The notes below the pieces were generated by a model. The model was not told the DNA's origin. It ran no database searches and saw only the letters and a list, made by a program, of their open reading frames with translations. Positions 3,391 to 34,713 of a stretch of DNA of 37,373 bases are shown here, one piece after another (within the stretch, counting starts at the first letter, position 1; each line of letters begins with the position of its first letter). Source of the stretch: Trichosphaerium sp. ATCC 40318 (taxonomy: Eukaryota > Protista > Tubulinea). Position numbers and translations under genes: made by a program. The stretch is from positions 1 to 37,373 of the forward strand of contig JALMLS010000226.1 of the NCBI GenBank assembly GCA_038496445.1, written 5' to 3'.

Positions 3391-3452
3391 TTTATAAAAG
3401 TAGAGAAAAAAAGATTTTTAATAAATAAAAAGTATATTATAAATTAAAAATA

Positions 3453-4960: not shown

Positions 4961-5179
4961 AAGATAATTATAATTTTGGTGAGGATAAAGTTAGAAGTTT
5001 AAATGGTGTATTAGTCTTTAACTGTTTTTATTTTTTCGTGTTAAATCCAAATACAGGAATTTGAGTGTGCAAGTATACCTTTGAATTATGTAAGAAAAGG
5101 ATTGATGGTGTATCTACTCATTATTTGGTGCTTATTAATTTAATGTTTATTTATCTAGAAAGTATAAGAGGTTTTTTTA

Positions 5180-6040: not shown

Positions 6041-6117
6041 AATAAAAGAATAACTAAAGACGTTTAAGAAAAAAAAGAAAAGAAAAAAAGAAAAAATAAA
6101 TATATTTAAAGTATATA

Positions 6118-8657: not shown

Positions 8658-10850
8658 GAAACCAAGATGTTATAAAAGGAAAAAGTATAGAAAGACTTAG
8701 GTGTTTAAGTCGAGAGGAAAAAGCCCAGACTATAGCTAAGCCCTTAATGTTTTTCAACTGGAAAGACGTAATAAAAGCGGAGATGGGCTAGAAGCAGCCA
8801 TTCTTTAAAGATGCGTAAACTCACGTATTGTTTTTTAAGCGTCATGATGTAAGGGCTCTAAATTATTTGCGAAGCTATAGAATTAATTTGGTAGCAGATG
8901 TATTGTATGTAAAAAACTGTACGTGAGTTTGGTTAAAATATCAATAGTATAAATGTTGCATGAGTAGCTTATATGTAAAAACATTATTACGAAAGATTAA
9001 GGTTTCCTTATCTATGTTAAACAGATAAGGGTTAGCGGTCCTTAAGGGAATGTGTTTGTAAGATTCCGACTAAGGTTATATTAGTTATATTCAGAGCAAT
9101 TTTATAGAAATTTAATTACAAAAAATAGTTATTGTAATCGTAAAATATCAATTTTTTTGTAACTTACAAGAAAAAAATAAAAAAAAAAAACGTACCAATA
9201 ACCGACACAGGTAATTAGTTGTAGAACAATAAGTAATAGAAGAATAATGCTTAAGGAACTCGCAAAATAACTCAGTAACTTCGGGAGATAGGTACCTAAA
9301 ATATTGTTTTTTAAAATAAATTAAAAGTGAAAATAATTTATTTTTTAAGAAGTATTTTGGGGGAAGCGGAACAGAGAAGAGCGACTGTTTACTAAAACAC
9401 AGGACCCTGCTAAATAGTATATGAAGTATAGGTTCGATGCCTGCCCGTGCTGTATCGTGAAAAGGATTTGTTTAAAAGCAATGAATATAAGCAGCAGTAA
9501 ACGCGGCCGTAATCCTTGACGTCTTAAGGTAGCGAAATTCCTAGCTATTAATTGTAGTCCTGCATGAAGCGTAACGACTCTTCTACTGTCTCAAGTGTTA
9601 TTTTAGTGAATTGAAGTTTTCGTGAAGATGCGAAAAAATTGCAGCGGGACGGAAGACCCTGTGCACTTTACTAAAACCTTGTATGGGTTAAGGAAAGCAA
9701 AAACACAGTATAATCAAGAGGTATGATTTAATGGTTTAGGTCATTTAAGGAGCCGTCAGTGGATATTGATTTTTTGTTGGAAAAATCTAATCTTAGTAGA
9801 AATTAAAAATGCATGGTGGATAGTTTGTCTGGGGCGAAGCTCCCTAAAAGGTAACGGAGTGTACAAAGGCTAATTCAGGACGTTAAAGTTCCGTAGTGCA
9901 TATGGTTTTTATTTTAGCTGACTGTAAGCTTGAAAGGGTTAACAGGGATTTAAAGTCGTCATAGTTTTCCGGATGCGCTTACAGGTAGGGCATCCGCAAA
10001 CGGATAAAAGTACGCCAGGGATAACAGCTTATTGCCTTTGAGAGTTCTTATCTGCGAGCGGTTTGGCACCTCGATGTCGGCTCATCTCATCCTGGGGGAG
10101 TAGGCTCCCAAGGGTACGACTGTTCGTCGTTTAAAGAGGTACGTGAGCTGGTTTAGAACGTCGTGAGACAGTTTGCCCCTATCTGCTGTGATAAAAATTA
10201 AAATTAGAGCCCAATGCAGTACGAGAGAGGCGTTATGGTAATAGGGTGCACCGCTTGTGGTAGCGTTATCGGTTTTACGTTCCGGTTGGCGTTAAAGCTA
10301 CGTTTTAAAAAAAATCAAAGTTTTTTAAAAAGTCAAGTAAAAAATACTAATTTTAATTATATTTATGAAAATTTCAGGATTAAATATGGAAGTATAAAAA
10401 AAGTCTCCCCAAATAATGTTATATATATTTTTTCAAGAACAATTAAAAAAAAAGAATATAAAGTTTCTATAAAAAGATTCTCTTTCTTTTTCAAGCATGC
10501 TTATAATTTTATCTTTTCAAATTTCATTTTTACTATCTATTATAGTATATCAATCCATTAAAACAAGTTCATGTATTTTAATATCTTTTCATAAATTTTT
10601 AATAGTTACATTAAGAGTCTTCATGTTCAAAAAATCAAAAAGCATCATAGGATGCTATCATATATGAGCAAGTTTTTTTGGGGAGTATGGGAACTTTATT
10701 ATCATGATAATACGTATAGAATTAGGAAATCTGTCCGTTAATTTGGTTAAATATTAACAAGTTTATAATGATAATCAAAATAGCCATGTTTATTAATTAT
10801 TTTTTTTTTTCGTTATGCCTTTATTAATTTTTTTTTAGGTAATTTTTTAA
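8657..10850 (+). repeat. Block C: direct copy of about 1543-3730 (rnl and start of cox1), degrading after about 10300
   Basis: Starts tgaaaccaagatgttataaa as at 1543; near-identical up to about 10300, then a mosaic. Confidence 0.93.
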
Positions 10851-11619
10851 TTCTACTTTAAATTTACATTTTTTTCACTTATATCATAATTTTCAATTAT
10901 AAATTCTACTCAGCTTAAATTCTCAAACATAACTGACAAATTACTTTCTTATTATTATTCCTTCGTTTTCTAAAGTATAAGTTACAAAATTAAAAAAATC
11001 AGCATCTTGACTTTGCTCAATTTCACCTATATGATCTACTATTTTTTTTTTTTAAACTCTTTATCATTTTGCATAAATAGAATAAAATTATTTATTTCTT
11101 CTAAATTAAGCATAGAATTAATAAAAAAATGATAATAAATAGAACACATAACTAATCATAAGATCATAGAAGCAAACGCACTATAGCTTCAAGTTAAACT
11201 ATATCCTTGGCTAGCTAGTTGCGTATATAGATCTGCTACCACTGTTGGATCTATAGGTACTAAATTGTCTAACTTATCCACTATTTCTTCTCTGCTTTTT
11301 TCTTCATTAAAGAACGTTAAGGTTAAGCCTCCCCCTCGAAGCTTAACCATTCAAAAAAATGAACCCTCCCTTTCGCTAATAAAGCATAATTATTTATCAA
11401 ATCTTCTTTAAAAAAAGGATTATTATAAAATACTAATTCTTTACTAAATAAAAAATAAAATTTAAAAACACTTATAAAACACCCCGCCATGTAATGTATT
11501 GAATTCAATACAAACCAAAGAACCAAAAATGATAGGAGCTCACTTTTTACATATTTCTTTAATATTACAAAATTAAACATGATAATTTTTCTTCTTTTTT
11601 TATATTTTAAACTTAACAA
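10850..11619 (-). CDS. Unassigned ORF with hydrophobic segments, truncated at the fold-back junction
   Basis: Long open stretches (MFNFVILKK...FEGE; EEKSREEIVDKLDNLVPIDPTVVADLY; SAFASMILWLVMCSIYYHFF) with only a few frame breaks. Confidence 0.55.
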
Positions 11620-11749
11620 TACCTATATAAATTACTCTATTACACTACACAAAATACACTGCATATATACTTTAAATATATTTATTTTTCTTCTTTTTCT
11701 TTTTCTTTTTTTTTCTTAAACGTCTTTTAGTTATTCTTTTATTTTTTAT

Positions 11750-12144
11750 TTTACCATTTATAATTTCATCTGAAATTTTGGTTCCAAATTCTTTTGTCTT
11801 CACAATTTAAAAGATTTTGATGTTTTACCATAGTCTTACTTCGTTGACATTTACAGGTAAACCACTTAGTAACTTTAACCTCTATTACTATAAGATCTGT
11901 ATATCTTCTTATATATTTTTTAATTCTCACATAACCTTTCACCTAAATAATAATTAGAAAAAAGATAATACTTTAAAATCATCCCTTTCCTAAAATTCCA
12001 ATTGCTCAAATTTTCGCAAGGCGATATACCTAAGTTAAAACATATTCTACTACCCTTCGTCTACAAAGCCCCCTAACGCAGATAAATTTACTGAAATTGC
12101 TCCTTACTTTTTAATATTACACCAACTAAAATAAAATTTTTCAT
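11750..12144 (-). CDS. rps13: Ribosomal protein S13 (cryptogene)
   Basis: GLPVN(G)QRSKT(N)GKTSK at about 11815-11870; ATG at 12144. Confidence 0.85.
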
Positions 12145-12614
12145 AACTTAATCATAATAAAGTAATCCTTTTTTCCTTCTCTTCACGTACTTTTCCTATT
12201 TTTAGTTCATTAAAATTTGTGGATGCACAATCCTATTTTCCTATATATATGAACTTTTTATAAAGCAAAAAATATGCGCAAAATTATTTAGTATATAAGA
12301 TATATACTAAAACATATTATAATTTTCTATAATAAACTTTTATATAAATTAAATCATACTAAAAAGATATAAAAAATGACCTAAAAATAAATTTATCTAC
12401 GTAATTTCTTATATGTTTAAAAACACGCACTCTAAAACTAAACCTTTTAAATAAAATTTAAAATAAAAACTTTATAAGATCATAAAAACGAAAGAAAAAG
12501 ACGCTAATAAAATTTAAAAAAACTAAATAATCAAAGAAGAGTAGCGTAGAGATTTTCTATCTATTTTCACTATACAAATTTTTTTAACTTCAACTATCTA
12601 TGACTACAAAACCA
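12145..12614 (-). CDS. rpl6: Probable ribosomal protein L6 (cryptogene)
   Basis: Weak motifs plus rpl6-rps13 synteny. Confidence 0.45.
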
Positions 12615-12839
12615 TTTAAAAAAACCTCTTATACTTTCTAGATAAATATAACATTAAATTAATATTAGCACCAAATAATGAGTAGATACACCATCAATCC
12701 TTTTCTTACATAATTCAAAGGTATACTTGCACACTCAAAATTCCTGTATTTGGATTTAACACGAAAAAATAAAAACAGTTAAAGACTAATACACCATTTA
12801 AACTTCTAACTTTATCCTCACCAAAATTATAATTATCTT

Positions 12840-14346
12840 TAAAAATAAGATCTCTCTTTTGTTAAAAAGTAATCTTCAACTAAATCTCATAGGCATCTTC
12901 ATAAGAGTATACAATATAAAATATAAAAACTCTCCTATAGACATAAAATATAACATAAAATAAATAAAAATAAACACAGATAGTAAATAACGCCCAACAG
13001 AACATCAAAAATTTAAAGCAACATAAGCATCTGGATAATCACTATCCTTCTGGGCATACCCGCCATCCTAACAAATGCATTGGCAAAAAAGTCATATTTA
13101 CTCCTATAAAATTTCCCAAAATTGTAATCTTCCTATAAAATCGGATATTTTTTTCCAAACATTAAAGAACTTCAATGATAAAACCCGCAAAAATTCCAAA
13201 CACAGAACTAAAGATAAAACATAATGAAAATGAGCAACACATAATATGTATCATGCAATGCTATATCTAAAACACGTTTGCTAAAATAATACCAGTTACA
13301 CTCCAAAACTAAACATTAGTACAAATCTGCAGCATAAAATAGCGGAACTCTTCATTCTACTATACAAACATTATTGTTGATAACAACCAAAAACTTTAAC
13401 CCTGAAGGCATTGCTATTATCATAGTTACTGTCATAAAATATACCTCGTATCATCATCTAAACCCGCTGTAAACATATGATGACTCATACAATAGATCCT
13501 AAAACTGCTATACATACCATGCATAAACCATAGAATCATGACATAAACCTCTTTATAAGTTCAACAGAAATTACTACACTAGTTATACAAAAGCTGGTAA
13601 TATTAATATATAAACTTCTGATGTCCAAAAAATCAAAAAATATGTGATATAAAACAGGATCTCCACCTCCTGTGGATCAAAAAATGTTGTATTAAAATAC
13701 GATCTGTTATTAACATAACTAAAGCTCCTCTAAAACAGGTAATGTCAATAATAATAATACCGCTGTTATATAAATGATACTGCAAACAACCAATTCTATA
13801 AGTATCCATAATCGCATATTCATTATAGTTACCATAAAATTTATTGCACCGATATTGATGAAATTCCGGCTATATGCAACTCAAAATACAAGCATCTATG
13901 ACATTCCAGGACTAGCCTTAATACAGAAAGTAATGGATATAAAGTTCATCCTGCTCTGCACCATCTCCTATAACAAAGATCACATTAATAATAATAAAGA
14001 AGGCGCAATAATCAGAAACCTAAATTATTTACTCTTGGGAATGCATCTCCGGGGCCCCTAAACTTAATGAACTATAAAATTACCTAAACCCCTATTAATA
14101 AAGGCATAACGAAAAAAAAAATCATTAATAGACATGCGCTGTTACGATTACATTATAAACTTGTTATCTTGAACCAAAATTAACGGACAGGCATTCCTAA
14201 TTCTATACGTATTATCATGATAATATAGTTCCCATACTCCTCCAAAAAAACTTGCTCATATATATAGCATCCTATATCTTTATGATTTGTTGAACATGAC
14301 CACTCTTAATGTAACATAAATATTGATAAAAACTTAATAAATACAT
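12840..14346 (-). CDS. cox1: Cytochrome c oxidase subunit 1 (cryptogene)
   Basis: Canonical cox1 motifs in shifting frames; ATG at 14346; 3' end approximate. Confidence 0.97.
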
Positions 14347-14409
14347 TATTTTTAATTTATAATATACTTTTTATTTATTAAAAATCTTTTTTTTCTCTAC
14401 TTTTATTAA

Positions 14410-16945
14410 AAACTTAATTAATGGAATCTAGTCAAAAAACTACCTTATATATATTTTTTTTACAGTTGTAAAAAAAATATATATAACATTATTTTACAAT
14501 ATTTTTTTTACTACCATATTTAATCCTGATATTGAATCATAAATATAAATTAAAATTAGCAGATTCTACTTATATGTTATCAGCAGTTCCTTTTTCGCAC
14601 GTAGCTTTAACGCCAACCGGAACGTAAAACCGATAACGCTACCACAAGCGGTGCACCCTATTACCATAACGCCTCTCTCGTACTGCATTGGGCTCTAATT
14701 TTAATTTTTATCACAGCAGATAGGGGCAAACTGTCTCACGACGTTCTAAACCAGCTCACGTACCTCTTTAAACGACGAACAGTCGTACCCTTGGGAGCCT
14801 ACTCCCCCAGGATGAGATGAGCCGACATCGAGGTGCCAAACCGCTCGCAGATAAGAACTCTCAAAGGCAATAAGCTGTTATCCCTGGCGTACTTTTATCC
14901 GTTTGCGGATGCCCTACCTGTAAGCGCATCCGGAAAACTATGACGACTTTAAATCCCTGTTAACCCTTTCAAGCTTACAGTCAGCTAAAATAAAAACCAT
15001 ATGCACTACGGAACTTTAACGTCCTGAATTAGCCTTTGTACACTCCGTTACCTTTTAGGGAGCTTCGCCCCAGACAAACTATCCACCATGCATTTTTAAT
15101 TTCTACTAAGATTAGATTTTTCCAACAAAAAATCAATATCCACTGACGGCTCCTTAAATGACCTAAACCATTAAATCATACCTCTTGATTATACTGTGTT
15201 TTTGCTTTCCTTAACCCATACAAGGTTTTAGTAAAGTGCACAGGGTCTTCCGTCCCGCTGCAATTTTTTCGCATCTTCACGAAAACTTCAATTCACTAAA
15301 ATAACACTTGAGACAGTAGAAGAGTCGTTACGCTTCATGCAGGACTACAATTAATAGCTAGGAATTTCGCTACCTTAAGACGTCAAGGATTACGGCCGCG
15401 TTTACTGCTGCTTATATTCATTGCTTTTAAACAAATCCTTTTCACGATACAGCACGGGCAGGCATCGAACCTATACTTCATATACTATTTAGCAGGGTCC
15501 TGTGTTTTAGTAAACAGTCGCTCTTCTCTGTTCCGCTTCCCCCAAAATACTTCTTAAAAATAAATTATTTTCACTTTTAATTTATTTTAAAAAACAATAT
15601 TTTAGGTACCTATCTCCCGAAGTTACTGAGTTATTTTGCGAGTTCCTTAAGCATTATTCTTCTATTACTTATTGTTCTACAACTAATTACCTGTGTCGGT
15701 TATTGGTACGTTTTTTTTTTTTATTTTTTTCTTGTAAGTTACAAAAAAATTGATATTTTACGATTACAATAACTATTTTTTGTAATTAAATTTCTATAAA
15801 ATTGCTCTGAATATAACTAATATAACCTTAGTCGGAATCTTACAAACACATTCCCTTAAGGACCGCTAACCCTTATCTGTTTAACATAGATAAGGAAACC
15901 TTAATCTTTCGTAATAATGTTTTTACATATAAAGCTACTCATGCAACATTTATACTATTGATATTTTAACCAAACTCACGTACAGTTTTTTACATACAAT
16001 ACATCTGCTACCAAATTAATTCTATAGCTTCGCAAATAATTTAGAGCCCCTTACATCATGACGCTTAAAAAACAATACGTGAGCTTTTACGCATCTTTAA
16101 AGAATGGCTGCTTCTAGCCCATCTCCGCTTTTATTACGTCTTTCCAGTTGATTATTATTTAAGGGCTTAGCTTATAGTCTGGGCTTTTTCCCTCTCGACT
16201 AGAATCTTCGCACCTAAGTCTTTCTATACTTTTTTATTTTTATAACATCTTGGTTTCACTATACCCGTAAATAACTTAGTTACTCCGGAATAATATTAGT
16301 GCCATACTCTACAAAATCAAAATACGCTTGCTTAAACAAGTTTCGCAGAAAACCAGCTATCACCAAGTTTGATTAGCTTTCACTCCTAACCAACACTCAT
16401 CGAGCCTCTTGCAACAGACACCGGTTCAGCCAAAAACTTGGTGTTGTTAGATCACTTGGTTTCGGTCATATTTTTTAGACTTTACAGATTTACTCTTTGC
16501 TTTCACTACGCCTCCCTTAAAGTTAAGCTTGCTCAAAAATATACTCATTGGCCCATTATACAAAAGTACGCTGTCATATCTTTTTTATACTCCAACCGTT
16601 AAAGTATTAAGTTCATTTCTTTTCAACTATCCCTACGATATCTTTTTCAACTTCCTTCACAGTACTTTTACACTATCGGTTATCAAAAAATTCTTACTTT
16701 AGCAGCAGGCACTGCCTATTCGATTTTCTCTACTTAAAAGAACTCAACGCATTTGTCACCACTACTAACGTTTCTACACGATGTTTTTTTTATAGGTACT
16801 GAGATGTTTCACTTCCCTATTTTTATTTTTCTATTTTAAAAATTTAAAAAGATACCTAAAAATCATAGCATTGTACTACTCAATTAAAGTTTTCGCTTTA
16901 TTAAAGCGTCTTTTTTCTTGATACCTAGTAATCCCCTTAATACTT
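14410..16945 (-). rRNA. rnl: Mitochondrial LSU rRNA
   Basis: Universal LSU motifs of domains I-VI; ends approximate. Confidence 0.97.
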
Positions 16946-17173
16946 AATATATAATAAAAGTAAAAACTCTAATAGAAAACTTTTACTTTTTTTTACTCTT
17001 TAAATTAATAAAAAAATTTAAAGATTTAAATAAAAAAAAAAAATAAAATCCCCTATACTAACAGATGTTTTTTATATAGAAAAAAAAAAAAAAAAAAAAC
17101 AGAACTACAAAGAATATATGCGATATTCTACTAATATAAAAAATAAACTATCCTTTTAATGATGTCTTTTTTA

Positions 17174-17407
17174 CTATGTATACATAATTAAAAAAGACAT
17201 CATTAAAACTAATAAACCCATCGCCTCAGATAAAGCAAAACCTAAAAGTGCTGTTCTAAATAAATTAGCTTCTAATTCAGGATTTCTAGATACTGCTATT
17301 AATAAACCTCCAAAAACTATACCTATACCTATACTTGCTCCTCCTACACCGACAGTACATACTCCTGCTGCTAATACTTTTGCTGCTAATACTATTTGTC
17401 ATTCCAT
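17174..17407 (-). CDS. atp9: ATP synthase subunit 9, intact 77 aa
   Basis: 234-nt uninterrupted frame with TGA=W: MEWQIVLAAKVLAAGVCTVGVGGASIGIGIVFGGLLIAVSRNPELEANLFRTALLGFALSEAMGLLVLMMSFLIMYT*. Confidence 0.97.
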
Positions 17408-17491
17408 TTTTTTTTTTTTTTTACTTTTTTTTTTTTTTTATTACTCTTTTTTCTAAACTATATAAATTTCAATAATAATTTTTTTAAATTC

Positions 17492-18726
17492 TTATCTATC
17501 AATTTCTCCAAAAACTAAATCTAAAGATCCTACTACGGCAACCATATCTGCTAACATACCATGCTAGATAAAGAATCTAATGCCTGAAGGTGTAAAAACC
17601 TGGTGATTTTATTCGACATCTCACCGGCTTGTAGATCCATTTGATTTTAAAAATACACCAATTCACCTTTAGGTGCTCTACTATACTATAAGTTTCTCCG
17701 TATTTACACTAGGACACCTGAAAAATATTTAAAGAAATGTATTATAGCTTCATACTTGTCTTCATTAAATGCTTTGCTGGTGGTAATACTTATAATTATT
17801 TACTTTAACACTTTGTAATTTAAATTTTACATATATATTAAACACTGCTTAATTATCTTACGCTTTCTTTCATTTCCAAAATACGCAACATAAAACGATC
17901 ATACAATCACCATAAACTCCACAGGTATTTTAAACTTAAGTAAGTTATACACTCGTAAGGTTGCATGATTCTTAAATCTCAACAAAAACCAACGGACTTA
18001 AAATAACTCCAGAAAACCATAATCAACTGCCATCCTAAAAGGTGCTATAGCTATATTTACTAAACGCTGCTAAATATTCTATTATCTCTTATTAAATCTT
18101 CTAATCAAAAATTCTATATATAAATGATTCAAAAAAGATCCTATATCAGATATTAGTGTTGGTGTATATCGTTCACTAAACGCCAGGTCTAAAATATGCT
18201 GCATGAAACCTCGCACTGATACTCTTTCATAAAATTCCAACACCTTTTCCCTTCTTCAAACGCTCAGAGAAAAGGTGTTAATGCACAAGATCTAACGCAT
18301 GTGTTGTTAGAGCAATAAATGATTTAAAATACGTGTTAATCCATAAAAATAACGCGTATACTTTTGCACGTAACGGATACTCACTCCTAATAAATTTCAA
18401 CTGCTTTAACATAAACTTGTTCTTGACCATCATAGATACATATCTAACCTATCAAAATAAGGCAAACTTTGCAAGTAGGTTTATACTCTATTAACTTTTC
18501 AGTACCTCTATGCAATAACCTATATGAGTATCTATTTCAATAACAGTTTCCCATATAATTTTACTACTAGTCTTAATACACCATGAGCTGCTGATGCTGC
18601 GGACCAAAATTTAGTGTTAAAATAGCTACTTTAAAAAAAACACTTGCAAAAACTTGTTTTTTAACGACCCCACATTACTTTAATTTTTCTTGAGTTACGT
18701 AAATAACGTCAAATAAACGTATTCAT
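17492..18726 (-). CDS. nad7: NADH dehydrogenase subunit 7 (cryptogene)
   Basis: LTLNFGPQH(P)AAHGVLRLV, LHRGTEKL, LPYFDRLDYVSM, DLVFGEIDR*. Start approximate. Confidence 0.95.
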
Positions 18727-18749
18727 TTCAAAACAGTTATTTTTAGCTA

Positions 18750-19146
18750 CACTATAACATTTAAACTAATTTTTAATAACACTCTCCACCTATTCTTTTA
18801 TATTTTTTATAGGTAAAAATCATTACTACTTATTCACCATTTGATATAGATATTATAAATAAACAAAATATACTCTTTTTTTGAAAAAAAAACGTTCAAA
18901 TGAATAAAAGACATAAACTCTCGCTTCCTGGCGTACTAACTAGCGCATTGTTTTTATTATCGGTGTTACTCCAATGTACTTAAAAAAACCTTTATCTGAT
19001 GTTATGTAAAACATATAACATAATGCAACTTCTATTTTAAATAGATGTAGTAATTTAAAACTTTTTTATTAAAGATAAATATACATACTATGCCTATAAA
19101 GTAAACTACACGTATATTAGATACAGCAAAAGCCAAAGATAAAACA
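18750..19146 (-). CDS. rps8: Ribosomal protein S8 (cryptogene)
   Basis: LAFAVSNIR, LKYIG..PIIK, LVSTPG..RVY, IGGE; follows rps14. Confidence 0.8.
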
Positions 19147-19530
19147 CTATCAACTTGATTAGATATTCCTGCAAATAACTAAACGATGCAAAATTTTTAA
19201 ATTCATGACGTGACATTTAGCAAATCTTACTACCGATCTGCTCGACCTGTTATATGACACCAATTTTAACTAAAGTAAAACCTCTAAGTTTCGCATATGA
19301 GCTATTATATTTAAAAATAAAGCCGCTTTAATCTATATTTTATTGTTTTTTGACTATTTAGAAATGTATATAATATTTTTTATTTCATTTATTTTTAATA
19401 ATTTCTTTTTAAATATTCTAAATGAAGCTTTAGCTTATATGACTATTATATTTATTTTTAGCTATAAACATTATTTTTTTTATTTTAAAAACTTTTCTAG
19501 ATTATGATCAAATAATTGCTTATTACTCAT
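19147..19530 (-). CDS. rps14: Ribosomal protein S14 (cryptogene)
   Basis: CHITGRA, MSRHEFK, C-terminal SSW*. Confidence 0.85.
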
Positions 19531-19534
19531 ATAT

Positions 19535-20070
19535 AACTTAAAAACAAATAGTATAAAAAAAAAATTCTTTTGAAAAAATTAATCAAAATAAAGAGGCGCT
19601 TCCCAACCAGAAAACCTAATAATTGTGTTCATCGAATAAATATTTAACATCGTAAACTTTAAGATTAAACGAAACCTTTTGTCAACTTTATTTTTTTTAT
19701 AGATCATTTATACTTCATCAATTTATTACTTTTTCCTTGAAAAAGAATGCATAAAGACTTCCGCTATAGGATCCTTTAAAAATATACTATTTTTGTTTGA
19801 TAAGACTATCTCCTGTATAACTATTTAATAAAAAACCAACCTATATAAAGCAGCTGGTTTATTGCTTCACCAAAATCAAAGTTAAACCGCCACCGACGAA
19901 TGTATATATCATGATTATAAAATTCATTAAAAAAAACTCTGTAAAGTGTTTAAAATATAATGTTGCAAAAAACATTGATCTTTTTTTTTATTTAAATTTC
20001 TTTAATTTGCTTATCTATAAGTAAACAGCAAACACAAAACTAAATCTCTTTACTTTAAATTATTTTTCAT
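19535..20070 (-). CDS. rpl5: Probable ribosomal protein L5 (cryptogene)
   Basis: Mainly synteny (between rpl14 and rps14) and size; ATG abuts the rpl14 stop; no strong motif seen. Confidence 0.5.
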
Positions 20071-20433
20071 TTATACACACCATTATTAACAGAACCTACG
20101 TAAACATAAACCATCCTATTTCTTGAGGCATTGACCTTCTAAACGACGTCCTATAGAGATCATTTTTTATTGACAAAACTATAGAATTTTCTTTAAATCT
20201 TAATCTTGTATGTGTAACTTACGCCTACACAACCTTTAGTACGCACAATAAACCACGCATTAATTTTCTTTAGGTATTAAAATTTGTTGTGTTATAACAC
20301 CTTTGTAACACAATTATTAATTTATCTCCTATTTGCCCATACTTTTTTTTCCCGCACCTACTATTCTTAAGCACGCGCTTCTATTGCGGTAGTATATCCA
20401 TAACACCTACATTACTACCATCTGTATTCCCAT
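20071..20433 (-). CDS. rpl14: Ribosomal protein L14 (cryptogene)
   Basis: MGIQ..GVMD..AIEA.CLRIVG..GQIGDKLII; LIVRTK; FKENSIVL; GRRLEG. Confidence 0.85.
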
Positions 20434-20439
20434 TTTTTT

Positions 20440-21045
20440 ATTTAATTAACTTAAAAAAATTAAATTTAATCTTCCTGAAATCCTTCTTTTATTTTACTAA
20501 AAACAATTAATGTTTTCATATTTTAGGTACATTATTTAATCCTGTTTCACACACTTGAAAAAATATGCTACACATCAAATTGGCGATTTTCAACGCTAAA
20601 TTTACCTTTACCTTTTCCATTCTTACTAATTTAGACCTTTTAGTAAATGTAAATAACATATTAAATGCGTCGTAATCTTCCTAAACGTCGCTTTCTATTC
20701 CTACGACGAATTCTTCTTACATATTTAAAAATTTATTATTATAAGGTGTTTTTCTTTTTTCTCAAAAAAGAAAAAAGAAAAACGTCGTTTTCTCGACTTG
20801 ATAAACGACGTTTATTTTTTAATTTTTAAATTTTTGCTTTATTATAAATGTATTTTATTTAATTAGATGGACTTATCAACCTAAAGTTAAACTTTTAATA
20901 GCAACACTTGCGATCCTACATTCAATGTCACTTTTCTACCTTTGCTTTATATTTTATTTTATATTTAAATCTTTTCTAAATGCATATATTTTTCTTGGAT
21001 GTATACCATATTTGCACTTAAACACACTGGTTGTAAACAACCATC
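20440..21045 (-). CDS. rpl16: Ribosomal protein L16 with a basic insertion (cryptogene)
   Basis: HPRK..FRK, AIKSLTLG, FTKRSKLVRM(G)KGKGK. Confidence 0.85.
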
Positions 21046-21049
21046 CTAT

Positions 21050-21950
21050 AAGGTTTATTCATCAAATTTTAACACCCATTATACTAAATTTTAAAGGCAA
21101 ATAATTAAACCATAATCTATATAGCCTGTAACAGTACTTAATGTAATTTACCTTCAAAAAACATAAATTCACTTTTTTTTGACGTCTTTTAAAACGACCT
21201 TTAAATTAAATTTAAAACCTTCTATAATCCTCAATTAAACATTAACCTAAAACATTCCCTTTCATAGTACTCAACATTTCTTATAACTATATTTTTGATC
21301 AAAACGCTTTACCATAAACACGACATAAATCTTGCACTTACGCTTTGTTATCCAAAAAATCAACTTTAAACTTACTTTTTTGGATAACAAAGCACGAGAA
21401 AAAAACTACAAAATTTAACCATAAAAAAATTTCACCAATAAAATCATATCCCCATACACTCGCCTTGCTTCTATACTTCACATCATTAATTGTAAACTCT
21501 ATAAATAGTAACTAGCTTCGCCTTTTCCCTAATGCTTTTTTACTGCTGCTTTAATTAAATTCTTATAAAAATACGTAATTTAAAGTACCTGATCATTTTA
21601 CTTCTTTTAAAAATAACGTCAGCAAAAAGATCTTAAATAACGCATACAAGCTTTATATCTCATAAAAATCGTACACGATTTTTAACCGCCGAAGACATCA
21701 TGTCATATAAGACCATGATAACAATAACAACACCTATTAATTTATTATCACTTGATTATAAACAATATTTATATTATCTATAATCAACCTCTACCACGCT
21801 GCCAATCTCACTTAATATTGTTTTTACAAAGTTTCGAGCCGCAAACAACTATAAAACAAATTGCATAATGTATATCTTAACGTAATAAACATCATCTCAA
21901 GTAATCAAAAATTGGATCTAAAACACAGAGGATTACTAAACGACCTCTTC
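21050..21950 (-). CDS. rps3: Ribosomal protein S3 (cryptogene)
   Basis: N-terminal GRLV(N)PLCFR; C-terminal FKGRF, YIDYG, MGVKIW. Confidence 0.85.
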
Positions 21951-22228
21951 TTTTTACTTTCCCTTACTGGATTTTTTATCTTCTTTTTATGTATTCTAGA
22001 ACCTCACTTTTTGTAAAGAAGAAATCACGATATTTAAACCATACATATTTGGTTTAACAAATATATAATAAACTTTTGTCCTGTATAACACTATAATAAT
22101 TACCAATAAGCACTTAAAAATAATAATATTTCTATAAAAACATAATTAAATTTTTCGCTTTATGTATACTTTTTTTTAAAATCTTAAGATCTTTAACTTA
22201 AAAAACGGAATTTTTTTGGGGATCTCAT
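21951..22228 (-). CDS. rps19: Ribosomal protein S19 (cryptogene)
   Basis: MRSPKK.PF, YTGQKF, FVKPNMYG, DFFFTK. Confidence 0.8.
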
Positions 22229-22261
22229 TATTTTTTTTTTTCTTCTTTATTTCTTCTTTCT

Positions 22262-22846
22262 TAAAAGTTAAAACATCCCTCTACGTTCTATATACTTCAG
22301 GCAAATTCATTATTATTATAATATTAGGTTTATTATTAAAAACTAATGAAATGGTACAATAATACCTATTAATAAAATTAAACCACCTATTAAACATAAA
22401 AAGTAAAAAAACTAAATAAATTTTCACTAGTTGCAAAGATTTATTTAAGTTTCAGTAGATACTTCTTGAGCTGCAACCCTACAACTTGTTGAAGCTCTTC
22501 TTCTATAAAACGTATACAGAAATTAATCCTTATAATTTATAAAAGCAACACAAATTAATAATAATATATAAATAAAATTAAACAAACAAAAGTTTACTAT
22601 ATATTTCACCATATATACGAGTAACTTATCATAAATTGTTATTATAGCAAAAATAAAAAGATACAAATAGCGCCTATATATACGACCCTAACACAAGTCC
22701 AAAAAAACTAAATCATTAACTAATAACCATATAACTACACTACATAAAATAAAATTAAATTAATTAACCTTAACACGCTGTACTTATAAACATCATACTA
22801 CAAATGGTATAAAAAAAACTATAAACCAAATAAAATTATCTAACAT
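22262..22846 (-). CDS. nad6: NADH dehydrogenase subunit 6 (cryptogene)
   Basis: VVYIGAI motif, hydrophobic, about 190 codons. Confidence 0.85.
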
Positions 22847-22875
22847 ATTAATTCTTTTTATACTTTTTTTTATAT

Positions 22876-23217
22876 TTACCATCTATTGCAGACATTAATC
22901 ATTCATATCATAACCTAAGAATAAAAGTAAGATAAATTCAAGTAAACTATATAACCTCAAAAGTCATAACTTAAAATCCTAATACACTAGGTAACAACAA
23001 TACTATTTCTAAATCATGATTAAAAATAATAATGCTACCACAAAAAATCTAATTTCAAATTTACCCGTGGTTTTTTATTCATTAAAAACCGCATTCATAC
23101 GGAGATAATTTTGCTTTACTATAACTCTATAAACCAATATATATGAACATCCATATAGTAATATAACTCAAAAAAAAGCACTCCTAACACAAATAAACTT
23201 ATATAAAATGAATACAT
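22876..23217 (-). CDS. nad3: NADH dehydrogenase subunit 3 (cryptogene)
   Basis: KLSPYECGF, FFVVALLFLI.DLEIVLLLP, YEW..AID(W)*. Confidence 0.93.
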
Positions 23218-23276
23218 TTTATTTATTATTGCATCTTTTATATTTAAAATTACTAGAAAACAAAAAATATAAAATT

Positions 23277-23393
23277 TAAAGAACTTAATTTATTTTTAAT
23301 TTCGCTTCTTCCCTTGAAACTATAAAAAATTATAAACAAATAACTATCCTTTTTAGATATTCATTTATAATACAAGTAACATTCTCTTTTTTT
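23277..23393. repeat. 117-bp intergenic direct repeat, copy 1 (upstream of nad3)
   Basis: Matches 30351-30467 with 3 substitutions. Confidence 0.92.
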
Positions 23394-23399
23394 TTCACA

Positions 23400-23712
23400 T
23401 TTTTTTTACTTTTCTGGAATAAATCTTTTAAAACAAAAGATAAATGTCAATTATTTATACACTTGATTTACTTAAGCTATCAAAGAAAAAAATTAAATGC
23501 TCAGATTTACTAAACTTCACGTCTCTTTATTTATATAAAAATTTACACATAATCTTGTATAGGCCTCTTATACCACATGCCCTGAATTTCAAAATATACC
23601 TAATACACGCCCCGTATCGTTCAATCTCATTGATTTTACCTATAAAAAACTTCTTTTTTCAAATCATTTTAAATCTCTTTTTGACGTAAAAATTTAAACG
23701 ATAATTTGCATT
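23400..23712 (-). CDS. Possible ribosomal protein S10 (cryptogene)
   Basis: GIFWNSGHV resembles S10 TVLRSPHV; size fits; weak. Confidence 0.35.
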
Positions 23713-23719
23713 ATTTTTA

Positions 23720-24361
23720 TATTTATATCTCGATTAAATTTAAAAACTCCTCTCATATAAAATTATAAAAAACAAATTTTAACGTCGGTTCTTATGATTT
23801 CTTTCCTAAATAAAGTACTAAATGAAAACAATTTATAACGCAATAATACTCAACTATACCAGCATTTAAAGATAAAGATAGCCTATTTTAAATTTAAATA
23901 AGCTCATAAATTACTTATATATATTTTCTTTTTTAAATATAATTTAGAAATATATACAATTTATTACCTTCCTTATAATAAAAACACCAAATTAATTTAA
24001 ATTTATTATTTATTAGTTTTGTTTCTTATATTTTTGAAGATCTATACATGAAAAACAAACCCACTTCAACCTAATACATATAACTATATAGATCTTCAAA
24101 AATATAAGAAACAAAACTAACAATAAAACAAATCAATTTATACTTTATTTATATATAAATAGTACGTATTCACATAAAAATCGTGTCTTATGTCGTTATA
24201 AAAAAAATCACCATATTAATTCATTTTACATTTTTTCAGTCTATATATTTATATCATAAACACTAACCTTAAGTTTCTTCAAAAAGAATTAAAAAATAAA
24301 TACAACCCTTTCCTAAATTAAAATCACCTTTATATATTTTTTTAAATTGAACTAGTTTCAT
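23720..24361 (-). CDS. Possible ribosomal protein S2 (cryptogene)
   Basis: MKLVQFKKIYKGDFNLGKG start, VYDINID and a C-terminal segment loosely like S2; weak. Confidence 0.3.
24013..24120. repeat. Inverted repeat with about 34-bp arms
   Basis: ttagttttgtttcttatatttttgaagatctata ... tatagatcttcaaaaatataagaaacaaaactaa. Confidence 0.9.
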
Positions 24362-24367
24362 TTTTAA

Positions 24368-24571
24368 AGACAATTGCTCGGCTTAATCAGCTTTTGCTAT
24401 AAATAGAAATAGATTATTTACTAGCTTTTTATTCATAATCTATTTCTATTTATAGCAAAAGCTGATTAAGCCGAGCAATTGTCTTCATGATTTTAAAACC
24501 TGGTTTTTTACATGTAAAAAACCAGGTTTTAAAATCATGAAGACAATTGCTCGGCTTAATCAGCTTTTGCT
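24368..24571. repeat. Nested palindromes / inverted triplication
   Basis: aagacaattgctcggcttaatcagcttttgct occurs in +,-,+ orientation. Confidence 0.92.
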
Positions 24572-27500
24572 TTTCTTCTTTTTTTTTTTTTCCTCCCGTT
24601 TCAATCACATTCAAAATTTTCTAGAAAAACCTTGCGTAAAGAAATTAAGAACATAAGCCTGCTATGTTCAAAACCTTCACTTAAAACTAAACGATAATTT
24701 CTAAAATCATTTAAAGTATTTATATAAGAAAACCTTGGTGAATTAGCTTTAAAAATTGGTTGTGTATTATCCTTAAAATCTAAACGAGCACGTAAATCAC
24801 GTAGAAAGCTTTTACGTAAATTTTTAGCTAAAGTAGCTCGTCTATCAGATAGACGAGCTACTTTAGCTAAAAATTTACGTAAAAGCTTTCTACGTGATTT
24901 ACGTGCTCGTTTAGATTTTAAGGATAATACACAACCAATTTTTAAAGCTAATTCACGCTTCTTTTTAGTTATATCTGAAAATATACCTTTTTTCAATAGA
25001 TAAGATATATAATTATAATAATATACCTTATCATATTTTTTCTTTTTTTTTTTCCTTTTTTTTTCTTTTTTTTTTTTTAGTTTTTTTCTAATAAGATTAT
25101 ATATCTTTAATATTTTCTTAAAAGACCTTATTTTATATACCTTTCCTTTTTTTATTATTTTTTTTTTTTTTTTTTTTTTTTCCTTTTTTTTTAATTTATA
25201 AATTAACTTTTTATCTTTTATACGAAATTTTCTTCATCTTTTCCCATAACCTCTCCTATTATTTCTCTTTTTTTTTATTTTTGCTCATTTTCATGCTTTT
25301 ATTTGACTTTTTTTGAAATAATTATTTTTTTTTCCTCTTTTTAAACTTTTAGTTTTTTTTAAAGTAAACCTTTTTTTATTATTTAAATAATTATTTCAAA
25401 AAAATGATTTAAATAATCTCCCATTAAACGTTTTCTCTATAAAGTTAATACGTCTATTTCTTAATTTTTTTAAATATATAGTTCTTATCTTCTTTTCGTT
25501 TCATTTTTTTCCTTTGTTATATTTTAATCAAAGATTATATTTAATTTTTCTCGATAGTTTTCCACTTTTATCTAAACTTCAAATTAATTTATTATAATAT
25601 AAGCTGTCCCTCGCTAAAAGAGTAGAACGTATTAATATATTCATCATATTATTAAAACCTAGATTATTTGTTGTAACTTTTTTGGTCTTTTTATTTTTCA
25701 TTTGAACCATTGTTTAATAAATCTTATTTCCTTACGTTTACCTTCTTTTTCTCTAAAAGCATTTAATTTTATTTTTTTTATAAGTCTTCATAAACCATAA
25801 ATATCTATACTATGTTTATATTTACGACGTATTAACTGCAATAGTTTGGCTCTACCTTTATTTTTAAATATTATTCAATGACGCCATACTCAAAATAATC
25901 TATCTTTACGATCCTCACCATAAATATATCTTAATTTTCTATAAAATTCTTTTCATTTTTTTTTTTCATTAAAAAACAATCAATTTTTTCCAAATGATTT
26001 TAATTTTAACTATTAGGTAGAAATCATCTTACATTTCTATTTTTTTTAAAATTTACACATTGATTTTTGCTACCAAATAATCATTTTTTATAAAATTTTT
26101 TATTTTGTCACCGTCTTTTTGATATAAATTTTTTAAATTTTACAAAATTTCCTTTTCAAAGGTATGCTAAGTTATTTCGTAATTTAAATAACCAGTTTTT
26201 TTACGCATACGTTTGACAATACGTTGCATAAAAGATCGTGCTGCATTTCTAATGCAGCACGATCTTTTATGCAACGTATTGTCAAACGTATGCGTAAAGC
26301 TTTGACTATTTAACAAAATCCCCCAGCTTTTTTACGTTTTGAGAAATCGACTTTATTATAATAAAGTCGATTTCTCAAAATAAAATTTTTAAAAGATAAC
26401 CTTGTGTTTAAATCAAAAGGTTTATGGAATCGTAAAACGTTTCGCTAGACGCTTTTCCTAAAATTTAGGAAAAGCGTCTAGCGAAACGTTTTACGATTCC
26501 ATAAACCTTTTGATTTAAACGTATTTAATTTTATTTGACAAGATTTAGTTGCTTTGTTTTTAAATAAATTTTGCTTTCAAAATTTATTTATTTTTTTATT
26601 AACCTTTTCCAACATAGCAAAACGCTTCTTTCTACTAATATATTTATACTTTCTCCACTTTTTTTTTCTTTTTTTATATACATTCTTATTTAATACCTTA
26701 TTTTTCTTTATTTTTAATAAACGTTTTTTTTTTAACAATCGTTTTTTCTTTAAAAATCTAATATATTTTTTTTTATTATCTATTATTTTATACTTTATTT
26801 TACCTCACTTTTTTTTTATTAAAACTCATGCTTGTAATCTTCTATTTCTATTTTTTGATTTTTTTTTTTCTTTTTTTTTTAATTTTAATCTTTTACGCCA
26901 TTTTGTACCTAAAATATATCCTCATTCTTTTTTTTTTTTTGCTTTTTTTTTTTTTAGTATTTTACGTATCCCATATCAAAACCATTCTTTTTCTAAATTT
27001 TTTTTTAAACTAACACTTTTTTTTTCTTTTTCATTCTTTTTTTTCCGTTTCATTCTTTTTTTGTTTGCTTTTAAAATTCATCCTTTATAAAAACTATTAT
27101 AATAATTTTTATAAATTTTTCTATATATATTTTTTTTTTCTTCTTTTACTTTTTTCCCTCTTTTTTTATAAATTAAATTTCTTAAGCTTTCTAATTTTTT
27201 TTTTTTTTCTTTTTTTTTTTTTAAGTATAAAAATCTCATTAAATTTTTATACTTAGTTTGTTCTACGTTTTTTCTTTTATTTTTCAATTTAACATAATAA
27301 AAAAAAAGAAGAGATTTTATATTAAATTTGATTCTTCTTTTTTTTCTAATAACTAAAAATTTAAAAAACTTATGATTAAAATTTTTAATCATTTTAATCA
27401 TTTTATTTTTTAATATTAATATCATAAGTTTATTTAACTTATATTTTCTTTTTATTTTCTTAATCTCTTTTTTATATCTTTTTTTTTGCTTTATTATTTT

Positions 27501-28451
27501 TTTAATCTCTTTTTTTATTGCTTTTTTTTTTTTCCTAAGTTTTTTAAAAAATTTTTTTCTTTTTTTTTTAATCTCTTCTTTTTTTTCAATTTTTTTTTGT
27601 TTTATTCTTTCTTGCCTGCGATCTCATGCTCTTTTTTTTCTAAAATAACCTTTTGTATATCTACCTACTAAAAATTTTAATACCTTTTTTTTTTTTTTCT
27701 TTTTTTTTAATATTCTTTTTATTTTATTACCTTGACTTTTTTTGGTTTTTAAAATTTTTATTTTAGAATTAAAAATTTTTATTTTATATTTTACATTAAA
27801 TTTAAATTTTTTCAGAAGCTTCTGAAAAAATTTAAATTTAATGTATTTTTTTTTATAATGTTCTTTTTTTATCTTTTTTATTTTTTCTTTCCTTTTTTTT
27901 GTTTTTTTTTTTCTTTCCTTTCTAAAATATAAAAAATACTGACGTCGTAAGTATTTTTTATATATTTTACTTGGTTTTTTTACTATTCTTTTTATTTTTT
28001 TTAATAAAAACCTTTTTCTAATGTAACGTTTATGAAAAAACAATGAAGGTTTTAAAATTATATTTTTTACGTGATATTTTATTAAGTCAAAGTTTTCTTT
28101 CTTTTTTAGATAGTCAATACACGTTGGACGTACGTCCAACGTGTATTGACTATCTAAAAAAGAAAGAAAACTTTGACTTAATAAAATATCACGTAAAAAA
28201 TATAATTTTAAATTACTTTCTTTAATTTTACTTTTAATTTTACCTACTAAATCAATATTAAAACTAACTTCTTTTCTTTCTTTTAAACATGTATTTATAC
28301 CTTCACTTTTATTTGTTTCTTTTAGATATGTATTTATACCTTCACTTTTATTTGTTTCTTTAAAAAAGATCCTATCGCGATTTTTTAAAGAAATATCCAG
28401 GTTTTTTCTTACTAGTAAAATTAAAGAGACCCAAAGGTTGTTTTTTTTCAC
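24555..28451 (-). CDS. Giant Lys/Arg-rich unassigned ORF (may extend to about 28860)
   Basis: ORF-track pieces 27624-28451, 27078-27425 and 24601-24996 are linked by long stretches that are open when TGA=W; the breaks I saw are few and mostly at homopolymers. Confidence 0.6.
24738..24956. repeat. 219-bp palindrome (109-bp arms, 1-nt loop)
   Basis: Centre ...gtctatc a gatagac... at 24847. Confidence 0.95.
26200..26520. repeat. Three adjacent palindromes: 26200-26298, 26337-26380, 26406-26520
   Basis: Arms of 48, 22 and 57 bp with loops of 3, 0 and 1 nt. Confidence 0.93.
27792..27845. repeat. 54-bp perfect palindrome
   Basis: Centred on cagaag|cttctg. Confidence 0.9.
28051..28212. repeat. 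162-bp perfect palindrome with no loop
   Basis: Centred on ggacgt|acgtcc; the same peptide appears on both strands in the ORF track. Confidence 0.96.
28282..28362. repeat. 39-bp in-frame tandem duplication
   Basis: KETNKSEGINTYL / KETNKSEGINTCL on the minus strand. Confidence 0.9.
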
Positions 28452-28815
28452 AAATAACCTTTGGGTCTCTTTAATTTTACTAGTAAGAAAAAACCTGGAT
28501 ATTTCTTACTAAGGTTATCTAATATTATTTCTTCGCTGGTATACTTAATTTTAAATTAATTTAAAATTAAGTATACCAGCGAAGAAATAATATTAGATAA
28601 CCTTAGTAAGAAATATCCAGGTTTTTTCTTACTAGTAAAATTAAAGAGACCCAAAATTAATGACTTAATTACTATTAAATTTTTATCGATAGGTAAGCGG
28701 GATATAAAGTTTACGTCTCTCTTTTAGTTAACTAAACAAAGACGTAAACTTTATATCCCGCTTACCTATCGATAAAAATTTAATAAAGCGGGATATAAAG
28801 TTTACGTCTTTGTTT
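28388..28815. repeat. Two inverted triplications (about 28388-28654 and 28674-28815)
   Basis: aagaaatatccaggttttttcttactagtaaaattaaagagacccaaa occurs +,-,+; aagcgggatataaagtttacgtct occurs +,-,+. Confidence 0.92.
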
Positions 28816-29646
28816 TTAAAACGCCGTTTTTTTTTTTTTTCTTTTTTTTTTCTATTCAATATTTTTATTTAAATTTACAAAATTAATAAACTTAATTTAT
28901 TTTTAAAATAAGTTTATTTTTTATAGGCAATTTTACCTTCTATAACGTCCACTAATATGTAATTTATTTAATTTATTGCTTATTTTTTCTGGTTTCTTAT
29001 TTCACGATATAATACAAAATTTGCTTACTATTAAGATATTTTCTTAAAATTAATTACGCTTACCTTTTCATAAAGTTTTTCAAAAAGATTACTACGACGT
29101 GGTATAAACTTCTAAACACTTTTACATAAAAATATAAACACGTATAAAAAAACTTAAAATATCAAAAAATAAACCGAAAACGAATGATTTAAATTTTCCA
29201 TTTTACCAACCCTAATCTAACTAAATTATTCCTATTTTTTCAAAATATAATACAAAATTTAGCAAAACAAAATATAAAACTTTGCTATTTTAAAAAACGC
29301 CTCAATTAACACCTAAAAACCACCCTTACGTAAAAACTTATAATTAATATAAAAACTCTAAATTTCTTGCACAAAATTCTTAATTTATAAACATAACCAA
29401 GTTTATAGAAGCTTTTCTTCCTTCATATAAGTTAACTTAAACCTCACATTTGATCTATTTTGGCTAATTTTTGTTTATTAAATTGATCTCCATAAAACGA
29501 GAACACTATAAAACACACATTACGACTACTATAACAAGTATATAACCAAGTTTTACAAAACAACTATATATCACCATTGATCATAAACATATCAAGGCAT
29601 ATTCATACCTTAAATCAGCTAAACCCCTATTAAATAATAAATAAAC

Positions 29647-29820
29647 TGTGTTGGAGGATAACGAACAAAAAAAGATTTAAGGGAATGATTTTAAAACTAA
29701 CATATTTAAATATCGCTTATTTTTAGGTTGTTTAAACAACCTAAAAATAAGCGATATTTAAATATGTTAGTTTTAAAATCATTCCCTTAAATCTTTTTTT
29801 GTTCGTTATCCTCCAACACA
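29647..29820. repeat. 174-bp perfect palindrome
   Basis: Centred on ggttgttt|aaacaacc. Confidence 0.95.
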
Positions 29821-29864
29821 TAAATAACCTTTTAAAAAACTTTAATATCTAGATGATTACTCTG

Positions 29865-29936
29865 TATTTTTTTAGAGAATTGTTGCGTTACCAAAAAATT
29901 AATTTTTTGGTAACGCAACAATTCTCTAAAAAAATA
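29865..29936. repeat. 72-bp perfect palindrome
   Basis: Centred on ccaaaaaatt|aattttttgg. Confidence 0.93.
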
Positions 29937-30350
29937 TCACTAGTTAGTAATTCAAAACTAAATTTCTTTTTTTCAAAACATAAAGAAACCTTTTGTTATA
30001 GCAACTCAGTAAAACCATCACTTCAGCATTACAATTAAAACTATAATTATTACCACTTAGCTATACCATTTATCCAAATACATCCACCTACATAACCATC
30101 CATGTAGTCATACCTACACAATATCTGTTTGACACACTAAAGATGCCCTATTAAAATTATATGCTTCATTATAACACGTAAACCGTCGTAACCTAATCAC
30201 AAAGAATAAAAACAATAGGTCTTACTCTTTTTTTAAAATGTAAACTATATTATTAAAATCTTCTTTTAACCAACCTACAATGCTAAACCTAAAAACACTT
30301 AAATATAAAAAAAAAAATAAAAGCTATCTAAAAAACAAAAAAAAATAAAA

Positions 30351-30467
30351 TAAAGAACTTAATTTATTTTTAATTTCGCTTCTTCCCTTGAAACTATAAA
30401 AAATTATAAACAAATAACTATCTTTTTTAAATATTCATTTATAATACAAATAACATTCTCTTTTTTT
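30351..30467. repeat. 117-bp intergenic direct repeat, copy 2
   Basis: Matches 23277-23393. Confidence 0.92.
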
Positions 30468-30491
30468 AAATAAAAAATATAAAATAAAATA

Positions 30492-31514: not shown

Positions 31515-31529
31515 GATAAGTAAGCTTAT

Positions 31530-34403: not shown

Positions 34404-34713
34404 TAGGCGGAAAAAACTTAAATAAATAGTGGTATAATAATAGAAAATATACCACTATTTATTTAAGTTTTTTCCGCCTAGGGTGGGGAATTTTATTCTT
34501 TAGGCTTTTTTCTTCTCATAAATTATCTATTTTGTTTTTTTTTTATACCAAAAAAACAAAATTCCCCACCCTACACAGTGTTTTTTACATACCAAAAAAA
34601 CAAAAAAAAAAACAAGAGCCTAAAGAATAAATGTGCCAATAAAATAAAATAAAAAGTTAACTATTTATTTTATTTTATTGGCACATTTATTCTTTAGGCT
34701 CTTGTTTTTTTTT
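34404..34713. repeat. Cluster of intergenic hairpins
   Basis: taggcggaaaaaactta.../...taagttttttccgccta; tagggtggggaatttt/aaaattccccacccta; caagagcctaaagaataaatgtgccaat.../...attggcacatttattctttaggctcttg. Confidence 0.88.

Follow-up and report, generated by a model that had tools for sequence, protein, structure and literature searches.

Single-base insertion editing as the probable key to a cryptic mitochondrial gene cluster in Trichosphaerium sp. ATCC 40318

The window analysed here is a 37,373-nt stretch of AT-rich mitochondrial DNA from Trichosphaerium sp. ATCC 40318 (GCA_038496445.1, JALMLS010000226.1). Its minus strand holds at positions 17492-23217 a cluster of about ten genes, from nad3 to nad7, in which long open reading frames (ORFs) are absent under genetic code table 4. 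Single bases are missing from this DNA, while RNA-like contigs from two studies carry them, with matching positions; direct nucleic-acid evidence of this kind is available for about half of the cluster. The best overall explanation, to which we assign a probability of about 0.72, is that the bases are missing in the DNA and are added as doublings of a neighbouring base by a stuttering mitochondrial RNA polymerase. That transcripts of the cluster undergo insertion editing is, in our judgement, very likely and, given editing, stutter of the polymerase is its probable mode. The genes nad3, nad6, rps19 and rps3 would be edited likewise, which at the measured density amounts to approximately 190 sites over 5.7 kb.

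Extra bases in RNA-like contigs

Among 21 public runs listed from ten studies, 20 hold part of the stretch, and four (X2, X6, X8 and X18) were compared with the window over 17400-20740. None of the listed runs is annotated as RNA, and the run types were guessed by the tool used: X2 is probably DNA, while X6 and X8 (one study) and X18 (a second study) are probably RNA, as which we treat them here. X2 equals the window without any other letter and without a gap over five pieces comprising 1,474 nt (17552-17702, 17716-18025, 18063-18348, 18552-19106 in the rps8 region and 20505-20676 in rpl16), inside which 23 modelled nad7 sites are located. Six contigs of the RNA-like runs are longer than the matching window DNA by as many letters as they have gaps (27, 10, 31, 31, 28 and 29), and all gaps are thus insertions. 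Contigs of X18 span 17455-18377 (+27) and 18359-18743 (+10) with no substitution in either, those of X6 and X8 both span 17455-18461 (1,007 nt, +31) with one synonymous substitution, and X8 additionally contributes record 23 (18442-19295, +28) and record 25 (19556-20350, +29). On average, one extra base was found per 30.2 nt. A protein model of nad7, built without the run data, placed 31 sites in 17455-18461 and 27 in 17455-18377, which are exactly the contig counts and bring nad7 fully back into frame, and came within approximately 5 nt of all displayed insertion rows. Such an independent check of counts was made for nad7 only, and the displayed rows are 12 out of 89, selected by the tool.

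All 12 rows are common to X6, X8 and X18; X2 covers nine of them and lacks the base at all nine. Each inserted base doubles an encoded neighbour, ten times G (17563, 17598, 17627, 17657, 17675, 17697, 17714, 17750, 17788 and 17829), once U (18441) and once A (18479, all on the coding strand), and in seven cases the neighbour is a lone base. From the neighbour frequencies, the chance of 12 doublings in 12 rows is approximately 1e-5. Neither C (0/12) nor dinucleotides (0/12) nor deletions occur among these rows, and the single U makes up 1/12; doubling of C is known by alignment alone (nad7, His-Pro). The last two rows are also present in nad7 contigs of other organisms (X6, X8), and the contig of X18 itself has them. 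In X8, two groups of 'other letters' could be reproduced exactly (4/4 and 5/5) as paired single doublings merged by the aligner. This adds four inferred sites (G, A, A and A), with two A doublings in rps8 (19054-19056 and 19069-19070) and two sites in the slot of rpl5 (G at 19980, A at 19997-19999), and brings the RNA-supported doublings to 16 out of 16.

X2 also holds a diverged haplotype of the rpl14-rpl16 region with 50 substitutions in 242 nt (approximately 20%) and no gap relative to the window. As it is gap-free and retains the same length of rpl14, this haplotype is cryptic as well. Of the 12 codon changes that could be read, six are synonymous and the others mostly conservative, in a small and partial sample that was read by hand from the 26 of 60 substitutions displayed, leaving out 12 letters of a dense cluster in which the frame could not be fixed. 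The 2.5-kb contig in question (record 7, 19173-20699) is near-identical to the window up to approximately 20090 and then 12-20% diverged, again gap-free, and represents either a mosaic or a second mitochondrial haplotype.

Reconstruction of the cluster genes

An earlier note on this DNA had placed about ten genes by motif and order in a region devoid of ORFs. We reassessed this with our own frameshift-aware aligner, which charges an equal penalty for missing and extra bases and employs profiles from mitochondrial and bacterial proteins. The gene order on the minus strand is nad3-nad6-rps19-rps3-rpl16-rpl14-(rpl5)-rps14-rps8-nad7-atp9-rnl-cox1-rps13, and homology supports nine of the ten cluster genes, rpl5 being the exception. 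The ancestral order rps19-rps3-rpl16-rpl14-rpl5-rps14-rps8 claimed in the note was upheld, with rpl5 assigned by position and length. In line with cryptic genes, the period-3 signal of 17492-23217 reaches only 0.4-1.2 times expectation, compared to 10.6 times for atp9.

The most extensive alignment was obtained for nad7 (17492-18676, start codon at 18676 or 18727). At penalties 6 and 8, it spans 397 of the 402 profile positions and takes 36 insertions but no deletion (33 missing and one extra base at 10 and 12). It reaches a score of 1033 against 50 for the best of 30 shuffles, and restores a protein with up to 66% identity to intact homologues. For the shorter genes, local mode gave insertions and deletions of 7/0 (nad3), 4/0 (rps14), 3/0 (rps19), 2/0 (nad6) and 5/0 (C-terminal half of rpl16), with rps8 being marginal. 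In whole-gene mode, six of seven genes stood above 40 shuffles: nad3 (22876-23217, approximately 9-10 modelled insertions, z = 20), rpl14 (20071-20433, z = 16), rps8 (18747-19153, start approximate, z = 10), rps14 (19147-19471, ending K-S-S-W with TGA as Trp), rps19 (21965-22228, 3' end approximate) and nad6 (22281-22846; z = 7 for each of the last three). Extra bases from record 23 of X8 cover rps8 and the 3' part of rps14, and record 25 includes 20071-20350 of rpl14 and runs across the rpl5 position; nad3, nad6 and rps19 are located beyond the RNA runs. The C-terminal domain of rps3 (21050-21960, ends approximate) aligned at 21062-21225 with four insertions and no deletion (score 56.8, best shuffle 28.7). 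In rpl16 (20466-21045, longer than usual, 5' end approximate), the conserved half at 20549-20705 took 5-6 insertions and no deletion. The edited gene at the rpl5 position (19500-20070, 3' end approximate) was identified from position and length alone: the slot measures approximately 560 nt and its ATG abuts the stop codon of rpl14, while the rpl5 profile gave no signal there (z = 0 in whole-gene mode, 40 shuffles).

Allowing insertions only scored higher than allowing deletions only in 11 of 14 regions tested: nad7 (1033 vs 512), nad4 (408 vs 119), nad3 (130 vs 61), rpl14 (93.8 vs 52.6), nad2 (92 vs 43), rps3 (57 vs 27), nad6 (47 vs 37), rpl16 (45 vs 28), rps14 (41 vs 21), rps19 (38 vs 25) and, barely, rps8 (27 vs 26). 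The rpl5 slot and two guessed regions upstream of nad3 gave zero signal in this model comparison. As to whether deletions are needed, six reconstructions (nad7, nad3, rps14, rps19 and the C-terminal parts of rps3 and rpl16) are free of them, whereas rpl14 takes three beside ten insertions in free mode, with an almost unchanged score when deletions are disallowed. The proposal that all repairs are doublings held in the displayed RNA rows, and the suggested C in nad7 and G in rpl16 match the alignments; the letters suggested for rps3 and nad3 are ambiguous, since the unedited frame of rps3 also reads N-P-L-C-F-R and at the end of nad3 A or G doublings fit as well as U. TGA falls on conserved Trp positions in six genes (nad7, 2/2; nad3, nad4, rps3, rpl16 and rps14), so the code is table 4.

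Beyond the cluster, the same pattern also appears in the aligned cores of cox1 (12946-14313, 45 insertions and no deletion in the copy continuous with the cluster, 48 and four in the other copy), nad4 (31746-32789, 27 insertions and no deletion over 31746-32654) and nad2 (33186-33747, 12 insertions and one deletion). The large-subunit rRNA gene (14504-16959) is predicted to follow the same editing rule: 21 single bases are missing compared to other mitochondrial rRNAs, with some rows referring to the same site, and two are extra in a comparison of DNA only; 16 of the 21 are compatible with doubling. Alignment placed rps13 at 11815-11910, whereas a by-eye guess at 23400-23900 was rejected after profile alignment gave nothing. 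No start codon was found at the 5' end of rps3; its junction with rps19 likewise lacks a clear start codon, and the two genes might be fused or overlapping. An arginine/lysine-rich insertion seems to separate the conserved halves of rpl16 at 20710-20880. Even with doublings allowed, neither gene nor tRNA was detected in 23250-24450 and 28500-30500, and a search of three spacers for tRNAs, accompanied by an ARAGORN control run, found none, either unedited or cryptic with at most two doublings. Rfam matches in 17000-37373 were all below family thresholds and mostly fell on palindromes. The segment 23245-23393 is repeated at 30318-30467 (93%).

In contrast to its neighbours, atp9 (17174-17407) is intact in the DNA and encodes 77 amino acids. 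Its 234 nt lack any site between the edited nad7, where the longest modelled gap is 53 nt, and the rRNA gene predicted to be edited; judged from its sequence, atp9 is thus apparently exempt from editing. Public assemblies contain six members of the same protein cluster. DNA of a close relative was not recovered: the best atp9 identity in metagenome contigs was 61% among the matches listed, and viral contigs yielded no match. Further minus-strand ORFs, all open in the DNA, are located at 24556-25713, 26478-28505, 30492-31529, 34687-35262, 35166-36653 and 36574-37263, and five of these six show a period-3 signal of 3.9-15.8. Since atp9 and the long ORFs are open, not all DNA of the window is cryptic. 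The long ORFs encode lysine-rich or acidic proteins without a real Pfam match and require no editing. Between 24367 and 34715, ten or more palindromes, near-perfect and 50-220 bp long, were observed (e.g. 24738-24956, 28051-28212, 28460-28655 and 29647-29820), several of which are located in long ORFs and read through in frame; they may be real repeats or artefacts. A Pfam search of 21 read-through frames and the six long ORFs recovered no real family and three sub-threshold chance matches.

Site spacing and competing explanations

The earlier note did not cover the strong G bias, the narrow spacing or the exemption of atp9. Modelled sites, with a positional error of a few bases, are on average 30.2 nt apart in nad7 (coefficient of variation (CV) 0.35, range 15-53) and 29.8 nt in cox1 (CV 0.32), compared to a CV of 0.94 for random placement; the nad7 value was reached in 0 of 20,000 simulations. 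A model with a dead zone of fixed length and random waiting thereafter was rejected (0/20,000). Random accumulation with hard exclusion fits at approximately 18 nt (P = 0.26) and poorly at 13-16 nt (P = 0.0003-0.02). The inferred paired sites are 13-19 nt apart, the closest pair at approximately 13-16 nt. No motif was found within three bases of modelled G sites, apart from a slight lean towards a 3' U (49/81 vs 180/405). The modelled base counts cannot serve as separate evidence for the G bias, as the 12 RNA rows were used to tune the G bonus of the aligner (exact matches increased from five to ten of 12).

What mechanism could yield such insertions? We suggest that the mitochondrial RNA polymerase, presumably a phage-type single-subunit enzyme, reads a single template base twice when it transcribes certain fixed sites. 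Slipping back by one base and recopying it would yield a neighbour-repeating base of any identity without the need for a guide. Slippage of this kind is the simplest reading. As preferred account of the narrow spacing, a soft minimum of approximately 13-18 nt, near the footprint of an elongation complex, may act together with near-saturation of sites; a bolder account would be a distance-metering polymerase. Tentatively, and with less confidence than we place in stutter itself, one may extend this to editing of independent origin in a non-heterolobosean marine protist, with Physarum-like density and a polymerase that meters 15-50 nt without a sequence signal and is switched off on atp9 and the ORFs.

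Several observations weigh against stutter editing as outlined here. The evidence consists of contigs with guessed run types, in which strand, editing efficiency and partly edited molecules are invisible, and X2 may be the window's own source. RNA cover ends at 20350, with nad3, nad6, rps19 and rps3 above it. In an unrestricted nad7 alignment, four of 36 insertions are not doublings, although for two of these RNA rows are available and show G doublings. Protein alignment by itself barely separates doubling from non-doubling, with nad3 and nad2 scoring higher without the rule, and the fit of hard exclusion needs 18 nt, yet closer sites exist. Finally, 77 of the 89 insertion rows are undisplayed and may include non-doubling sites. 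These unseen rows also leave room for a reading in which editing is real, and bases are added without a template as in MICOTREM or post-transcriptionally by guide RNAs, with doubling as a strong bias. The density of one site per 30 nt, the minimum distance and the unedited ORFs indeed resemble Physarum in the accessible text of PMC10048350. We nevertheless regard non-templated or guided addition as unlikely, given that 16 of 16 RNA-supported sites (12 shown, four inferred) are doublings and that G, not C, dominates. None of 36 modelled edited 15-mers occurs on either strand of the window DNA, a weak argument against guide RNAs as only 37 kb were searched.

Stutter editing also has to be weighed against explanations without any editing. 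Because part of the assembly is noisy, sequencing error had to be tested before any other rival. The segment 1-6122 repeats 11659-17795 in inverted orientation, and the copies of this 6.1-kb repeat differ by 71 indel letters, while one cox1 copy needs four deletions, as would fit homopolymer errors of a noisy long-read assembly for which the 'RNA' contigs represent the true gene. However, X2 repeats the cryptic DNA gap-free (one loose end in this comparison resembles what we take to be an Illumina adapter) and its diverged haplotype is cryptic too. The missing bases are mostly lone G at regular spacing, long A/T runs are intact, and so are atp9 and the long ORFs; the indels between the repeat copies have a mean distance of 87 nt (CV 1.34, range 1-667), and most of them (54 of 71) concern A or T. 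Assembly error is hence highly improbable in our view. We also consider it very unlikely that the window is a decayed copy, be it a nuclear mitochondrial insertion (NUMT) or a pseudogene, or that X6, X8 and X18 represent DNA from a second, intact form of the genome. The run types are guessed and the longest records of X6 and X8 measure 34-44 kb, so DNA may be present. Decay, in contrast, predicts substitutions and mixed indels, yet X18 has 37 single-base gaps and no substitution, and the small sample of codon changes in the X2 haplotype is largely synonymous or conservative. Each compared run holds one form only at the displayed rows, and an intact copy made by reverse transcription would require that editing took place first. 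The view that these are functional genes and not decayed NUMTs is supported: the extra bases are present in contigs of the probable RNA runs and absent from the probable DNA run. Ribosomes shifting frame every ten codons on unedited mRNA can practically be dismissed: no supporting point was found, the extra bases are present in nucleic-acid contigs, and the untranslated rRNA gene also lacks bases.

Apart from the large repeat, partial copies of the rRNA and cox1 genes are located at 6115-10853, and further fold-back copies are 88-93% identical. These duplications resemble long-read or amplification chimeras, and the copy at 1-6122 is noisier for cox1 and atp9.

Relation to known editing systems and implications

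Mitochondrial cryptogenes restored by inserted bases are shared with kinetoplastid editing. The latter inserts U only, several per site, is accompanied by deletions and is directed by guide RNAs, and none of these features was seen here. The closest resemblance is to the heterolobosean BB2 (Yang et al. 2017), for which stuttering was proposed and G accounts for 84% of the 475 mRNA and rRNA sites (accessible text of PMC5421314). Shared features are insertions of single nucleotides only, located beside an identical encoded base, mostly G and without a site motif (PMC5421314), and in every feature testable here the editing works like that of BB2. At the same time, the 1,203-bp nad7 of BB2 contains 14 sites compared to 36 here, approximately 2.6 times denser; atp9 (two sites) and four unassigned reading frames (URFs) are edited in BB2, while atp9 and the long ORFs look unedited here, and narrow spacing is not reported in that text (PMC5421314). 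The rRNA editing of BB2 is paralleled here by a prediction from DNA alone. In BB2, rpl2 precedes rps19 and rpl6-rps13-rps11 follow rps8, whereas nad6 and nad7 occupy these places here, and rps3 measures 3,030 bp compared to approximately 900 bp (PMC5421314). Related heteroloboseans use the universal code (PMC7900873), while TGA is Trp here. Since site counts, gene order, rps3 length and code differ, the organism is not BB2. The nad7 tree, whose references include no named eukaryotes, places the window on a long branch (0.87) and groups it with environmental sequences only.

MICOTREM in Physarum polycephalum shares the cryptogenes, a lower limit to the distance between sites and the presence of unassigned ORFs that stay unedited in the same genome (PMC10048350, PMC3152335). 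Its sites occur approximately every 25 nt with none closer than 9 (PMC10048350), compared to a mean of 30 and a range of 15-53 in nad7 here. The insertions in Physarum comprise 1,255 C, 43 U, 2 G and 1 A plus dinucleotides and are partly beside an identical base, in contrast to the G-dominated doublings at all supported sites here; furthermore, Physarum edits atp9, which is apparently unedited here. The long ORFs parallel the unedited URFs of Physarum and contrast with BB2. Stuttering in the paramyxovirus P gene (cited in PMC5421314) likewise adds G beside encoded G, but at one slippery AnGn tract and in variable number, while hundreds of sites are proposed here, each with exactly one base and in most cases next to a lone base.

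Some observations concern other mitochondrial genomes. Several eukaryote mitochondrial contigs were found binned in bacterial metagenome-assembled genomes or a viral collection (L062/L143/L144 in G001:C26, L067/L145/L146 in G002:C13, L147/L152 in G004:C16, and L055); by eye, G002:C13 is gene-rich with nad8, nad10, sdh2 and rps16. Vannellid amoebae use code table 4, and an earlier description of such editing may exist for them. Besides BB2, no organism with doubling-type insertion editing was found in the literature, coverage of which was mostly without subscription papers, including those on Vannella mitogenomes, and took in passages of PMC12328842, PMC12710240, PMC8589990 and PMC10127745. As a lead only, V. 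croatica is reported to lack nad3, nad7 and all ribosomal protein genes (PMC7194472). For foraminiferan cox1, a single frameshift is described, and retarians are reported without ribosomal protein genes.

For neither BB2 nor Physarum has the choice of insertion sites been explained (PMC5421314, PMC10048350). With a second organism that follows the doubling rule and offers denser sites, public DNA and RNA-like runs from several studies, a diverged haplotype and edited next to unedited genes, site choice becomes testable by comparison. If its lineage is unrelated to BB2, G-biased stutter editing would have arisen twice, which would point towards a latent property of phage-type mitochondrial polymerases. 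As the 21 read-through frames yielded no real Pfam family, ORF callers and Pfam are blind to such mitogenomes, and 'gene losses' reported from protist mitochondria may hide cryptogenes.

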